This document shows, in pieces, positions 53,920 to 60,438 of a stretch of 64,000 bases of DNA; the first letter of the stretch is position 1; every line of letters starts with the position of its first letter. Source of the stretch: Cirrosporium novae-zelandiae (Eukaryota); NCBI GenBank assembly GCA_026023565.1, contig JAPETS010000014.1, positions 1-64,000 on the forward strand, given 5' to 3'. The position numbers were made by a program, and so were the translations under genes. Below the pieces are notes generated by a model. It had not been told where the DNA came from and searched no databases. It was given only the letters and a program-made list of their open reading frames with translations.

Positions 53920-56352
53920 TCAAGACTCAAACCCGATAGGACCTTCTCCGACCATTTCACCCGAGAAATCCAACTTCATTAGTAATCTATCGATGCCGGC
54001 GCCCTTCCAGGGCACATACTGGTCCTCTTTCCCCGCGCCATCGAACCCCCGATCCTTCCCCAATCTATTCTCGTCGATTTCTCTTAGTCGATGTACGAGT
54101 TCTTTGATGCCCGAGTCGATTTCCTTGCCCGCTTCCACGAGTTCACTTTTGATCGTTTTTTCTTCTTTTTTGTAGTCGACAGAATCGAAGACACCGTCAT
54201 CTTCTTCGAGGTCGAGTCCCTGCTGTACAGATTGTAGACGTGTAAATAAGGCAATTAGGTGGTCGACGTGAGCTATGAATTTTCGGAGGATGAATGTCCA
54301 GGAGACGTCATCCATGAGGAGGTATTGGTAGAGAACTTGAAGGTAGAGGCGATGGGCGTCGGTTAAGGCCTCTGGGTCACGGTTGGATGCGAAGGGAGAG
54401 GCGAACTCGCTCTGAGCGAGATCGTTTCCGAATATGCTGTTGGAAATTGCAGGGGCTTCGCTTCGCGCTGTTGCGGGACGGGATGGCCCGTCACTGCGAG
54501 AAGTTGTGGGACGGGACGATGTTGTTGGTTGGGAGGGATTGGTTGATGACGGTAATGACGACGGGCCTAGGATCCACGCTCGGAAGTGTTTCCAGGAGCC
54601 TTCGAGTACTTCCCCTTGGAAGTAGCCTCCTAGCTCCGCCAGAAGAAATACAGCTGCACCAACCGTTGCCCATATGGGCCGCATGAAGAGTGTTCGGGCA
54701 TTTGCTCTTGCTCGTCGGGTTCGTAGTGCGTTTTGACCCCAGGTGGTGCTGCTGCGCGGAGGGCCCATTGGAGAAGGATATTCTCTTCTTAATGCAGTGT
54801 GCCTCCAGAGATCTGCGAGACGGATATGGGCTCTTCGGAGACCTAAGATGTAGGCATTAATTACTGAATACATCTCGAGGTCCGACTTTGCTAGGAAAAG
54901 ATCCAACGGTTGTGGTACTTTCATCCATAATGTTGTTGGTGTGGACAAGAGAAGGTCTCGGAAGCTGGTGGCAACTTTTTTTGATGCGGGATGTGTAAAA
55001 TCATGATCTGGAACCGAGGGCGCACTGGCTTTAGAAATAGATAAACTGATCAGTTCTCGAGCCATATCTAGTTCGTCATCGTTTGAATCATCCTGCATCT
55101 GCACAGAAGCAAGTTCAGTCCAAGTTCTCGCAAGGACATTAGTGACCTCGCCTTCTTTCACCATTAATCCTTCCAGAGCATGCTTCTTACTTAGTCGACC
55201 TAGCCCAGCGGTTGTTCTCCGATGCCGAGAATTAAGAGCAGCATCTGCTTGAGTAACTAGGGCTATAGCAAATTCTCCGCGACCAAGCAGAAAGAAATTA
55301 TGCAAAAGGCTTAAGATTTCGAGGATTCTGGATAGCGGAAGAAGCTCTTGCAAAGTATTTTGGGAAAGTGAAACTCGGATTGCTGTAACGGCTTTAGTGA
55401 AGCTGTTTGGTGATAATGGAAATGTCAAAGAAGTTAGATAAGATAAATGTATGGCAAGTAGACTTGTCTTAGGGGACCCTGGCTGCCGTGACTTCATTAC
55501 TTGTATCGAAGTACCTCGATTGCGAACAAGACGAATAGATTTTCCAATATATAAAATGGAGGACGCTGTCGATGGTGTAACAAACTTGGGTACCATCTTT
55601 TCCCTAATCACAAACTCTGATGACCTTGGAGAGTCCGTCCCCTGTTTTTCATTTGTTCCACATATGAAAAAGTCCTCCCTGCCAAAATCTGGGAGTTGGC
55701 CATAGAGTAACCAAGAAGAAAGTTGTTTCAACCAAGCTCTCTCTGCCTCCTTCGATAGTTCTTTTGCTGCTATTTCAAGAGCAGGATAGCCCGTTCTCAT
55801 CTCATCTCTCAAGTGATTGATTATAGCTGCACCGCTGCATGGATCGTCTGCCTCCGGTTCTTTTCCTTTAATCTTCGTCAACTTTTCCGGCGCCAATGGC
55901 ATCATGATTAGCGTCAGCTCCCATAACCAGCTTAACATTCGATCCCAGCCATCAAACTGGTCGACCATAGCTGACAAAGGAACAATTCCATAGCCTCCCA
56001 CCATAATTGGGCTCTTCTCAAGTATCATAGCCTCCACCTCGACAACCTTGCGCCTGTACCTTCTTAAGTGAACGGAGGCTATCGATGTTGAAACAGTACG
56101 GCATATTGTTGAGAAATGCGACGAGGAAATGATGGACGTATGAACACGAATATTCTCATGTAATTTGCCGAGTCGACCAAGTGAAGCTAGTAGAGTTTTC
56201 TCTGGCGGCGAAAGGAGGGAAGAGAGCTCCTTGAACGAGGGACTCTCATCGTCGCTCTCATCTTTAGTCTCATTTTCTAGCGAAACTCGATTGAAGAGAG
56301 GTGATGGGTGACCGGCTAAGGAGAGAAGGATTTCGTGAAGATATTTTGACAT
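53920..56352 (-). CDS. GCP4: Gamma-tubulin complex component, Spc97/Spc98 family (GCP4-like)
   Basis: LHEILLSLAGHPSPLF N-terminus, WLKQLSSWLLYG, ASSILYIGKS, FFLLGRGEFA and AHRLYL GRIP motifs, and a DRLLMKLDF end. A probable 5'-UTR intron at 56404-56353 (GTATTC..GCTAAC..TAG) abuts the ATG. Confidence 0.85.
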   Translation of the reverse strand: MSKYLHEILLSLAGHPSPLFNRVSLENETKDESDDESPSFKELSSLLSPPEKTLLASLGRLGKLHENIRVHTSIISSSHFSTICRTVSTSIASVHLRRYRRKVVEVEAMILEKSPIMVGGYGIVPLSAMVDQFDGWDRMLSWLWELTLIMMPLAPEKLTKIKGKEPEADDPCSGAAIINHLRDEMRTGYPALEIAAKELSKEAERAWLKQLSSWLLYGQLPDFGREDFFICGTNEKQGTDSPRSSEFVIREKMVPKFVTPSTASSILYIGKSIRLVRNRGTSIQVMKSRQPGSPKTSLLAIHLSYLTSLTFPLSPNSFTKAVTAIRVSLSQNTLQELLPLSRILEILSLLHNFFLLGRGEFAIALVTQADAALNSRHRRTTAGLGRLSKKHALEGLMVKEGEVTNVLARTWTELASVQMQDDSNDDELDMARELISLSISKASAPSVPDHDFTHPASKKVATSFRDLLLSTPTTLWMKVPQPLDLFLAKSDLEMYSVINAYILGLRRAHIRLADLWRHTALRREYPSPMGPPRSSTTWGQNALRTRRARANARTLFMRPIWATVGAAVFLLAELGGYFQGEVLEGSWKHFRAWILGPSSLPSSTNPSQPTTSSRPTTSRSDGPSRPATARSEAPAISNSIFGNDLAQSEFASPFASNRDPEALTDAHRLYLQVLYQYLLMDDVSWTFILRKFIAHVDHLIALFTRLQSVQQGLDLEEDDGVFDSVDYKKEEKTIKSELVEAGKEIDSGIKELVHRLREIDENRLGKDRGFDGAGKEDQYVPWKGAGIDRLLMKLDFSGEMVGEGPIGFES

Positions 56353-56611
56353 CTACAACTCCGATATCGAGTTAGCATCCATCATGCTAGCCGGAGAGGA
56401 ATACCTCGAAGAATCTCACACTCGTAGAATAAGTACCTACTTTAACCAAATTAACATCAGTGATGCTTACAGCGTGAATTCACAGTAAGCTAGGGTATGA
56501 AGAGTAGTATTTCTATATGCGCAAAGCGCATGAACAAAGATTTTGAGATTTTAGGGATGCGTCGTAAATTCTGCGATTGTACTAAGTATTATTGGTACTT
56601 AAGTAACAAAA

Positions 56612-56726
56612 ACGCGTTCTATCTCGACCATTTGCATCCAGGAGGCCGTCAAACAAAATGGGGTATAAAGTAGAGAGAAGTCGTCGATTTAAATCGACCT
56701 TCATGTATATCATGTCGAGGACGCGT
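56612..56726. promoter_or_regulatory. Two MCB-like ACGCGT sites and a 16-bp palindrome in the GCP4/UBA1 divergent promoter
   Basis: ACGCGT at 56612 and 56721; GTCGATTTAAATCGAC at 56683-56698. Confidence 0.4.
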
Positions 56727-57282
56727 CCCAACTATTTTGCCCATTAGATACTATCTGGGCAGATGCCTTGGGGAAGAATTCATCATTATTATTGTTCACA
56801 TTATTGAAGTGGGTGGGTGTTGGTGATCTGGTGTTGTTTGGATTCCCCAGGCATCAACTAGGCCTTGTCCCTTGGCCCGTGCCTGCCTGGATGGTGGGGT
56901 TGCCTTCGAGCTCCTTCTCAGTGTGCTCTCAACAGTCCGTTCAGTTTAATTATTTATCAGCAAAACTTCCACTTGTCATATAAAATTCTAGATTCACTCT
57001 CATCACTGGTCCCGTGGCACATCACTATTTTCAGGCCTGTGATCGATTAAGCCTTCAAGCAAACAGCTTAGTTTCTACCGACTTTCCCCGCCTCAAACTC
57101 GATAGTTATCTCCATAAATACCTACCTCGCACCTTTCCTTTCCAAACTCCAACAACATTCATTCCCACGCCAATATTCAGGAAGCAGAAACGCACCGTCA
57201 GGAAACCTCCAACAAAGCAGCAGCCAAGCTGGGTAAAAGGAAAGCTTCCATCGTGGAGCTTGGGCAACGGCCAAAAAAAGTC

Positions 57283-60200
57283 ATGGCCGACAACAAAATG
57301 CAGGTCGACAGTGTTGCTAAAGCTGCCGAGCAGCTAGAAAAGGGCGAAATCGATGAATCCCTATATAGCAGACAGTTATATGTGCTTGGTCATGAAGCTA
57401 TGAAGCGGATGTCATCCTCTAATGTGCTTATAGTTGGCCTTAAGGGATTAGGTGTGGAAATTGCCAAAAATATCGCTTTGGCCGGTGTAAAATCTTTGAC
57501 CCTCTTCGACCCTACACCTGCAGCTATCGCGGATCTATCCTCGCAGTTCTTTCTCCGTGAAAGCGATGTTGGCAAGCCTCGGGCCGAAGTAACACAGCCT
57601 CGTGTAGCTGAGTTGAACTCCTATACACCTATCGATATTCATCCTTCCAAGAGCCTAACGACCAACCTTTCGCAACTCAAACGCTACCAAGTTGTAGTTC
57701 TAACGGCCACTCCGCTCAAAGATCAACTAGCTATTTCAGAATATTGCCACGCAAATGGAATATACCTTGTTATTGCAGATACATTTGGTCTTTTTGGGAG
57801 CATCTTTACAGACTTTGGGGAAAAGTTCGCGGTGGGTGATACAACTGGCGAGAATCCCGTTAGTGGGATTGTGGCCGACATTGACACCGATGGTACCGTA
57901 TCCGCTCTTGATGAAACCCGTCATGGCCTTGAGGATGGAGACTATGTGACGTTCACTGAAGTTGAAGGGATGGAAGGTATAAACAGCTCAGCCCCTCGCA
58001 AGGTCACCGTAAAAGGACCATATACATTCTCTGTTGGCGATGTTTCAGGACTAGGGGAATACAAGCGTGGTGGGCTCTACATTCAGGTCAAGATGCCCAA
58101 ATTCATCGACTTCCAGCCTTTTAAGGAACAGTTGAAGAAACCAGAATTATTAATTTCAGACTATGCAAAATTCGATCGTCCACAACAACTCCACGTTGGG
58201 TTCCAAGCACTCCACAAATTTGCGGAGCATCATGAAGGGCAGTTCCCACGGCCATTCAACAATGAAGATGCATATGAGGTTTTGAAATATGCACAGGAGT
58301 TGTCAGAAGTCGGCGGCGAGAAGGTTGAGTTGGATGAGAAGTTACTTCGAGAGCTTAGTTATCAAGCTAGGGGAGATCTCAGTCCCATGGCAGCTTTCTT
58401 CGGCGGGCTGGCTGCTCAGGAAGTCCTCAAGTCTGTTTCCGGAAAATTCAACCCCATTATACAGTTCATGTACTTCGATTCTCTTGAATCGCTTCCTACT
58501 TCAGTACAGCGATCGGAGGAGCTATGTAAGCCCATGAATAGCCGGTACGATGGACAAATTGCAGTTTTTGGTCGAGAATATCAAGAGAAGATTGCTAATC
58601 TCAAAGAATTCCTTGTGGGTGCCGGTGCTATTGGGTGCGAAATGCTCAAGAACTGGGCGATGATTGGCCTTGGTACAGGTCCTAAGGGGCACATCACAGT
58701 AACCGATATGGATTCGATCGAGAGGAGCAATTTAAATCGTCAATTCCTCTTCAGACCGAAGGATGTTGGCTCTATGAAGAGTGACTGTGCTGCAGAAGCT
58801 GTTATTGTCATGAATCCAGCATTAAAAGGCAAAATCACAACGTACAAAGAACGAGTCGGTCCTGACGCGGAAAGGATTTTTAATGAGGATTTCTGGGAAT
58901 CTTTGGATGGTGTCACTAACGCTCTTGACAACGTTGATGCAAGAACATACATTGACCGAAGATGTGTTTTCTTCAACAAGCCATTACTGGAAAGTGGAAC
59001 TCTTGGTACTAAAGGCAATACACAGGTTATATTACCTCGGTTGACTGAATCATATTCGAGCTCTCAAGACCCTCCTGAGCAGTCTTTCCCCATGTGCACT
59101 TTGAGGAGCTTCCCTAACCGAATCGAACATACTATTGCTTGGGCCAGAGATTTATTCCAGGCATACTTTGTCGGGCCACCCGAGACTGTGAATCTCTTCC
59201 TTACTCAGCCTGATTATATTGACAAAACTCTAAAGAAAGCTGGAAACGAAAAGCAAACCTTGGAGCAGTTGCGTGACTTCCTAGTGACAGACAAGCCACT
59301 CAGCTTCGACGATTGTGTTATTTGGGCCAGGCAGCGGTTTGAAAAGCAATATAACAATGACATTCAACAGTTATTGTATAACTTCCCCAAAGATTCCAAG
59401 ACCTCTACTGGTACACCATTCTGGTCGGGCCCTAAACGTGCACCATCTCCTTTGAAGTTTGACCCTGAAAATCCTACCCACATAGGTTTCGTCATTTCTG
59501 CTGCGAACCTCCATGCGTTCAATTATGGTATCAAAAACCCGGGATATTCCAAAGAGCAGTATGAGAAGGTCATGAACGACATGATTATACCGGAATTCTC
59601 CCCGGATTCTTCTGTCAAGATCCAGGCAGACGATAGTGAACCAGATCCAAATGCTCAGCAAGCGTCATCATCATTTGACGATGGCGCCGAACTCTCGAAG
59701 ATGATCACCTCTCTTCCATCGCCAAAAGGCCTTGCTGGTTTCCGCTTAGAACCTGTAGAGTTTGAGAAGGATGATGACACCAACCACCACATCGATTTCA
59801 TTACCGCTGCCAGCAATCTGAGGGCTGAGAACTACAACATTCAGACAGCAGACAGGCACAAGACCAAGTTTATTGCTGGAAAGATTATCCCAGCTATTGC
59901 CACCACGACGGCTCTCGTAACAGGGCTAGTAATCTTGGAATTATACAAGGTTATTGATGGAAAGACGGATATTGAACAATACAAGAACGGATTCGTCAAT
60001 TTGGCTTTACCATTCTTTGGATTTAGTGAACCGATCGCTAGCCCGAAAGGTAAATATATGGGCAGGAATGGAGAGGTAACAATTGATAAGTTGTGGGACC
60101 GCTTTGAAATTGATGATATGACTTTGACGGATTTCCTCAAGTGGTTTGATGATAAGGGGCTCAGCATCACAATGATCAGCTCGGGGGTAAGCTTGTTGTA

Positions 60201-60438
60201 TGCAAGTTTCTATGCTCGAAGCAAGCTTGCGGACAGAATGCCTCTAAAGTAAGTCTTACACTAAGTTGGTTTTAGATCAAGTTGCTAACTAATAAATAGG
60301 ATGAGTGAGTTGGTGGAGAAAATAAGCCGTAAACGTATTCCAAAACACCAGAAAAACATTATCTATGAGGTGACGGCAGAGGATCAGACTGAAGAAGATG
60401 TTGAGATTCCTTTTGTCACAGTCAGAGTGAGGAAATAG
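57283..60438 (+). CDS. UBA1: Ubiquitin-activating enzyme E1
   Basis: Exons 57283-60248 and 60300-60438, with intron GTAAGT..CTAAC..TAG. Motifs [32 protein letters not shown], catalytic PMCTL and [12 protein letters not shown], plus the UFD domain. Confidence 0.98.

Follow-up and report, generated by a model that had tools for sequence, protein, structure and literature searches.

Putative near-cognate initiation upstream of UBA1 in Cirrosporium novae-zelandiae and a predicted nuclear form of the ubiquitin-activating enzyme

Does the gene for the ubiquitin-activating enzyme E1, UBA1, give rise to a second, nuclear form of its product from a codon other than AUG? The question is raised by a stretch of 64,000 nucleotides (nt) from Cirrosporium novae-zelandiae (assembly GCA_026023565.1, contig JAPETS010000014.1, positions 1 to 64,000 of the forward strand; hereafter the window), where an initial annotation proposed that a CUG ahead of the annotated start adds a bipartite nuclear localisation signal (NLS). 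UBA1 heads all ubiquitination. The gene in the window encodes the five E1 Pfam domains (ThiF x2, FCCH, 4HB, SCCH and UFD), its best protein matches carry the name ubiquitin E1, and a protein labelled Cirrosporium novae-zelandiae by its source (P0001) is annotated from the ATG at 57283, with 100% identity over the matched part.

In the stop-to-stop list of open reading frames, the UBA1 frame runs from 57118 to 60252, directly after a TAA at 57115-57117. The CTG at 57229-57231 is in frame with the annotated ATG, has the context gccaagCTGg (A at -3, G at +4), and a start there would add 18 residues bearing two basic clusters, exactly as first described. The ATG at 57283 (gtcATGg) is the first ATG; the claim that none lies in frame between the stop at 57115 and 57283 holds, and from 56900 to 57282 ATG is absent in all frames. 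Among 20,000 shuffles of the 165-nt leader, an in-frame RnnCTGG arose in 4.6% and a leader free of stops in 9.1%. In the window alone the CTG feature is thus only mildly unusual, and its significance comes from relatives.

Conservation of the extension and its upstream codons

Relatives were drawn from a metagenome scan with 391 confirmed loci, of which the best 80 were used together with the window, giving 81 sequences. The loci fell into 43 clusters by 88% single linkage, where one chain fused Cladosporium-like with Pleosporales-like loci and hid the TTG cases. The anchor peptide was picked by hand for about 20 loci, and five loci were added manually after the pattern missed them. Many genomic loci have an intron after the main ATG, for several of which the script left the join unresolved. 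This intron lies 3-9 nt after the main ATG and is 50-1,045 nt long in many relatives (L012-L084); it is missing in the window and in the Chaetothyriales-like loci L006-L010.

The extension is in frame with the main ATG in 78 of the 81 sequences, the other three (L077, L080 and L085) being without upstream DNA. Forty-five of the 80 tblastn matches began at query residue 18 or later, and the extension was present in all 42 of those with upstream DNA. Ordinary gene annotation overlooks it. Among the best 120 protein matches, 38 extend above the usual methionine with a KR...KK-x-M segment, and the remainder mostly begin at or below that methionine. A quick tree with named proteins placed loci near Eurotiomycetes, Dothideomycetes, Lecanoromycetes and Leotiomycetes, with class labels that are approximate in this quick mode (L020 and L025 omitted, 11 rows under half filled), and the N-termini of L067 and L082 are shared with named Sordariomycete proteins. 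The window species brings the Pezizomycotina classes among carriers of the extension to six. Sampling at the DNA level took in Pezizomycotina other than Pezizomycetes and Orbiliomycetes, with yeasts and Basidiomycota also outside the sample. The leader alignment across Pezizomycotina that had been suggested as a check came out in favour of the proposal, with both the frame and a near-cognate column conserved.

Across 18 disjoint pairs, dN/dS of the extension was 0.35 in the reading frame, while the two other frames gave 1.47 and 1.01; the enzyme core gave 0.03. The extension spans 17-21 codons in most clusters (38 of 43) and more in five (up to 50), with the frame always kept. By these comparisons the extension is deeply conserved, with purifying selection apparent on the encoded peptide.

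The column occupied by the CUG is more telling than the peptide around it. Across 78 loci its codons were CTG (56), ATG (7), TTG (3), GTG (3), ACG (1), GCT (6), GCC (1) and TCC (1), so that an AUG or near-cognate codon stands there in 70 loci and in none of the other 8 (5 clusters). Wherever a cluster representative has leucine in this column it is CTG (34/34), against a usage of 22.8% among 2,313 leucine codons of the coding region, and six of six conserved control leucine columns use five or six leucine codons. The binomial p of 1.5e-22 for the fixed CTG is inflated by relatedness, but the control columns share the same relatedness, and the glycine, lysine, arginine and proline codons beside the column vary synonymously.

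The context of the column is equally constrained. Position -3 is A in every one of the 63 near-cognate loci, and position +4 is G in 61 of them. The seven AUG loci, which belong to two lineages (a Cladosporium-like clade and L060), instead all carry the poor context of C at -3 and A at +4. Predicted proteins agree in that 9 of 225 begin with a methionine directly before the basic cluster, including those of Cladosporium fusiforme and Zasmidium cellare. The main AUG downstream is retained, and 42 of the 43 clusters have a purine at its -3 position. Because near-cognates occur in optimal context and their AUG replacements in poor context, an upstream start of either kind would be leaky, which fits a need for both products. 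Judged by this behaviour, the codon in the CUG column evolves like a start and not like a leucine, and the earlier proposal of CUG as an initiation site gains from the fixed CTG, from its exchange with other near-cognates and weak AUGs, and from the in-frame constraint. Three database proteins (P0304 and P0310, both Hortaea-labelled, and P0299) start with Met-Thr-Lys-Arg and have no methionine right after the second basic pair, which suggests that the NLS form may be their main product or that a splice was mis-called.

The five clusters with no start-like codon in the CUG column (four Chaetothyriales-like and L079) all have an in-frame ATT with A at -3 further up, compared with 14 of the 38 others (Fisher p 0.012). 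Counting all 43 clusters, 19 have such an ATT in frame, whereas 7 of 86 out-of-frame slots hold one (p 4e-6); in 14 clusters the CUG column follows it at a distance of exactly 12 codons. At this -12 column, 15 of 16 isoleucine codons are ATT, against a usage of 37.7%; one of the 15 (L047) is without A at -3 and may be chance. Where the ATT is present, dN/dS was 0.20 in the segment between AUU and CUG and 1.48 above the ATT (4 pairs); where it is absent, the same stretch appears unconstrained (1.24, 11 pairs). In the window, a five-sequence alignment pairs the ATT at 57157 with the conserved ATT of the relatives, and a 36-nt insertion before the CUG keeps the frame.

These comparisons indicate that AUU is a second conserved in-frame near-cognate start and that coding constraint begins there. 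The idea of a single upstream start thus survives as to the CUG, which is conserved, and gives way as to its being alone, as the conserved AUU lies upstream of the segment first described. Clusters where no in-frame A-3 ATT was found, some of them with an in-frame stop 5-11 codons upstream of the CUG, are left with the CUG, or its AUG replacement, as effectively the sole candidate. In locus L079 (115-396), a long-branch UBA1, the AUU is the only candidate upstream start, and its extension holds a bipartite motif and some 30 more residues ahead of the first AUG. Taking both codons together, we regard translation of the extension from the AUU and CUG as very probable.

The proposed nuclear isoform

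The model that best accommodates these observations is that of a single UBA1 mRNA with an AUG-free leader, read by leaky scanning in the order AUU (57157), CUG (57229) and AUG (57283). A small share of ribosomes would start at the AUU, a probably larger share at the CUG in its optimal context, and the rest at the AUG. Both upstream starts would add KRK-x10-KK, a bipartite-type NLS that would be bound by importin-alpha, such that the minor tagged isoforms would be imported and supply nuclear E1, with the majority AUG form mainly cytosolic. Evolution would keep the upstream start leaky, either by giving a near-cognate perfect context or by giving an AUG a poor one, and either near-cognate could be lost while the other remains. 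We give this model as a whole a probability of roughly 0.8. The comparative evidence for it is the frame, the codon identity, the context, the purifying selection and the CUG in spliced transcripts of relatives.

The case for nuclear import begins with the layout of the tag. A bipartite NLS has been described as two clusters of two or three basic residues with a linker of 9-12 residues containing proline (PMC8140498). The window has this layout in its loose form, KRK followed by ten residues and KK. In 36 of 43 clusters, 10-12 residues separate KR from the final basic pair, and the linker itself varies freely. The bipartite NLS of the initial annotation accordingly stands under the loose definition and by its conserved spacing, and falls short of the strict consensus (two basic residues, a 10-12 residue spacer and three basic residues of five). 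The window passes the three-of-five test only with a 9-residue spacer, and its second cluster ends KK-V-M.

A complex prediction of the 36 amino acids from 57229 with the Arm domain of a fungal importin-alpha (P0124) scored 0.59, against 0.09 for the best of three controls. The importin-alpha is from another fungus and shares 92% identity with that of the present genome across the queried exon. The runs agree in at least 80% of contacts, with a partner pLDDT (predicted local-distance difference test score) of at least 53. Of the solved pairs, 51 of 78 reached the mark, as did 2 of 108 mismatched pairs, in a calibration that peptides lie outside; scores of 0.60 or below took in only 5 of the 78 solved pairs and all 4 mismatches that passed. 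The prediction weakly supports a complex between the extension and importin-alpha. Solved structures of similar importin-NLS complexes exist, and the score may reflect likeness to them.

Two types of site recur within the tag. A basic-basic-x-Ser motif, with the serine two residues after the first basic pair, is found in 34 of 43 clusters (57241-57249 in the window), and S/T-P-x-K/R precedes the second basic pair in 11 of 43. These may be PKA-type and CDK-type sites, respectively; phospho-control of import through the conserved serine and the S/T-P sites is possible. N-myristoylation of the Met-Gly start was dropped as a candidate, since position 6 is alanine, leucine or lysine and not the serine of the consensus.

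Several points weigh against the model of nuclear minor isoforms. The strict bipartite test is passed in 8 of 43 clusters and not in the window, the KRXK consensus (PMC8140498) is not found in the tag, and the monopartite K(K/R)x(K/R) occurs in 0 of 43 clusters. Import of eGFP in Pichia was achieved with the C-terminal bipartite NLS of a protein labelled PpUba1 (PMC4629791), so that the core enzyme might have another nuclear route, orthology here being by label. The query used to rank the best 80 of 391 loci contained the extension, which biases that ranking, and the clusters are related, so that binomial p-values overstate their independence. Only 4 pairs underlie the dN/dS values around the AUU, and 24 of the 43 clusters yielded no in-frame A-3 ATT. 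A survey of dual-localised fungal proteins reports no enrichment of dual nuclear and cytoplasmic localisation by alternative starts (Wallace 2020, PMC7049704). The cDNA-like contigs considered below come from relatives of C. novae-zelandiae and are compatible with additional shorter transcripts. Finally, initiation, isoform ratios, importin binding and localisation are features that we infer from the sequences.

The competing account that fares best accepts translation of the extension from near-cognates and gives it a job other than nuclear import, as a phospho-regulated, nucleolar, binding or degron element, with another signal serving nuclear Uba1. The scarcity of the strict consensus, the conserved basic-basic-x-Ser and S/T-P-x-K/R sites, the C-terminal signal reported for PpUba1 and the weak complex prediction all lean toward it. 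Against it, the KR-KK spacing is held at 10-12 despite a free linker, which is the bipartite layout (PMC8140498), and the segment sits in the same place as the NLS of mammalian UBA1a (PMC4596250). We consider this account unlikely.

Transcripts and other accounts of the leader

Nuclear import of leaky near-cognate products further presumes that the codons are present in mature mRNA. The spliced contig L040 equals genomic L058 minus a 139-nt intron and is collinear with it across the CUG, with an ATG-free leader of 162 nt, and the spliced contig L037 likewise matches L030 minus a 50-nt intron, with an ATG-free leader of 147 nt. Three further cDNA-like contigs (L067, L034 and L032) contain the CUG and lack introns of more distant relatives. 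In these five spliced, cDNA-like contigs of relatives the CUG thus appears inside mature mRNA. A transcript starting below 57229, named beforehand as an observation that would overturn the proposal, is in the relatives contradicted by these contigs. In the window, the TATAAA at 56979 would place transcription starts upstream of both near-cognate codons.

Isoform choice could instead be set by alternative transcription starts, a long leader giving both forms and a leader beginning below the CUG giving the AUG form only, in which case non-AUG initiation would be real and not the control point. Mixed control of this kind is described for dual-localised genes of Cryptococcus (PMC7049704), yet tuning of the start context would be expected only if one transcript must give both forms by leaking, and we judge this account improbable.

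An upstream AUG exon, spliced at or near the CAG ending at 57180, would make the extension ordinary coding sequence and the CTG merely a leucine. The CAG (57178-57180) is in phase, a script lists 20 formal ATG-donor-acceptor combinations, and some annotated homologues start at a far-upstream methionine. These annotated upstream N-termini are, by eye, mutually unrelated, and no CTRAY branch site was found by the script in 56900-57229 of the window or in any of the 20 combinations. An intron there would delete the conserved ATT-HSHA segment, the spliced contigs L040 and L037 follow the genomic DNA upstream without a break, and some clusters have the in-frame stop 5-11 codons above the CUG. A leucine, moreover, would neither be fixed to CTG nor be replaced by GTG, ACG and ATG. 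The upstream exon, the second observation named as able to overturn the proposal, was rejected on the collinear contigs, the missing branch site and the conserved ATT segment, which largely refute it; we hold it to be very improbable.

The weakest account, that the segment is an untranslated RNA element (a structure or protein-binding site) merely resembling coding sequence, has in its favour a 7-bp hairpin beginning 13 nt after the CUG in the window and is virtually dismissed by an unremarkable fold against shuffles (z = -0.78 in the window; mean z -0.35 over 36 clusters, p 0.11), by substitutions that are synonymous-biased in frame only and by a frame kept through length changes of 17-50 codons. 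The same hairpin was rejected as an enhancer of initiation, as it does not exceed chance in the window (z -0.78) and is not conserved (negative z in 21 of 36, p 0.11).

Known systems, implications and the gene in the window

The closest known parallel to a nuclear form of fungal UBA1 is mammalian. UBA1a (nuclear, from Met1) and UBA1b (cytoplasmic, from Met41) differ by translation start and an N-terminal NLS (PMC4596250, PMC12336205), in agreement with the precedent first invoked for the fungal gene. Both cases involve the same enzyme, one gene and alternative starts (predicted in the fungi), with a longer form that has an N-terminal basic NLS (NLS-like in the fungi) and nearby serines; the fungal gene, known here from its sequence, matches the pair in layout. 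They differ in that mammals use two AUGs, with the NLS in the first 11 of 40 extra residues, whereas the fungi have CUG and AUU upstream instead of a first AUG, except for a weak AUG in two lineages (7 of 78 loci). The fungal tag packs two basic clusters into 18 residues that run up to the main methionine, and the long form is probably minor.

Among fungi, dual-localised proteins of the DualNCC and DualAUG classes, including aminoacyl-tRNA synthetases, show interchange of weak AUG and near-cognate starts (Wallace 2020, PMC7049704), and a non-AUG start yields peroxisomal Pgd1 (Kremp 2020, PMC7214817). These systems share with UBA1 the order of a leaky near-cognate or weak AUG, a targeting signal and a strong AUG, and they differ in targeting mitochondria or peroxisomes, where the UBA1 tag is predicted to be nuclear and has two tandem conserved near-cognates. 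Neurospora cpc-1 has conserved CUG, AUU and ACG starts with A-3/G+4 across Pezizomycotina and branch-specific loss (Ivanov 2017, PMC5487733), and dN/dS of its extension is 0.348, against 0.35 for UBA1. In cpc-1 the near-cognates bypass an inhibitory upstream open reading frame; the UBA1 leader of the window has no AUG upstream open reading frame, and the extension gives an essential enzyme a short, targeting-like tag.

UBA1 and ubiquitin are unmentioned in the main texts of PMC7049704 and PMC7214817, and the string UBA1 was not found in PMC5487733 or in bioRxiv 10.64898/2026.08.26.747414, supplements being outside the scope. A non-AUG isoform of fungal UBA1 was not found in the literature searched, which excluded most subscription papers, supplements and the survey of Wei et al. 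2013. That survey (JBC) reportedly covered conserved near-cognate extensions in N. crassa.

For specialists, the most valuable parts are the interchangeable AUU/CUG pair and the reversal of context where AUG replaces CUG. The natural series of CUG, GUG, UUG, ACG, AUU-only and weak AUG is a test bed for the evolutionary tuning of leaky initiation, and the gene is a rare predicted case of alternative starts dividing a protein between nucleus and cytosol. If the model is correct, annotated Uba1 sequences, N-terminal tags and ATG-cloned constructs miss the nuclear form, and the fungi have found a second way to the division that mammals achieve with UBA1a/b, the balance of which matters in VEXAS. 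Should the nuclear form depend on near-cognate initiation in moulds, lichen fungi and plant-associated ascomycetes, nuclear proteolysis would be tied to translational fidelity. A bolder version is possible but doubtful: filamentous ascomycetes would owe all of their nuclear E1 to a redundant AUU/CUG pair of non-AUG starts, the nuclear/cytosolic balance would follow start-codon stringency (eIF1/eIF5 state, amino-acid starvation) with the conserved serine as a second switch, non-AUG initiation would be essential, and annotated Uba1 would be cytosolic only.

Coordinates of the features at and around the UBA1 start are collected in Table 1.

Table 1. Features of the UBA1 locus in the window
Feature	Position	Strand	Basis
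TATAAA, candidate core promoter	56979..56984	+	sole TATA[AT]A in 56700-57229
In-frame TAA, bounds possible extension	57115..57117	+	sequence and open reading frame list
Candidate upstream near-cognate AUU (aacATTc, A at -3), in frame, would add 42 aa	57157..57159	+	alignment with conserved ATT of relatives
Second in-frame ATT, A at -3, column not conserved; optional extra start	57175..57177	+	sequence
36-nt insertion between AUU and CUG that keeps the frame, as aligned with four relatives (approximate edges)	57183..57218	+	alignment
Candidate CUG near-cognate start (gccaagCTGg), would add 18 aa	57229..57231	+	conserved column, A-3
Bipartite-NLS-like segment: KRK, 10-residue linker with conserved Ser (57247-57249) and Pro, KK	57235..57279	+	relatives
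UBA1 coding exon 1 from annotated main AUG (gtcATGg)	57283..60248	+	open reading frame, P0001, domains
Intron (GTAAGT ... GCTAAC ... TAG)	60249..60299	+	sequence compared with annotated protein P0001
UBA1 last coding exon	60300..60438	+	sequence compared with annotated protein P0001

A second UBA1 paralogue was rejected, as the only other matches in the genome were contig C47, which carries an identical copy, and three weak E1-like ones. Contigs C35 and C47 of this genome (G000) share an identical 4,320-nt stretch at the same coordinates (55681-60000), which is probably a duplicated contig and not a paralogue.

UBA1 lies head-to-head with a gene for a gamma-tubulin complex component (53920-56352, minus strand), and this divergent neighbour was detected in 8 of the 30 loci having at least 1,300 nt upstream. 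Downstream lies a GST-family gene (about 61001-62226, plus strand). Several database proteins (P0009, P0013 and P0299) are UBA1 fused to one of these neighbours, and the fusions are probably mis-annotations of a conserved gene order. Further downstream, at about 63130-63450, the window has a low-complexity triplet-repeat tract with open frames rich in His/Tyr, Thr/Ile and Gln/Ser/Leu.

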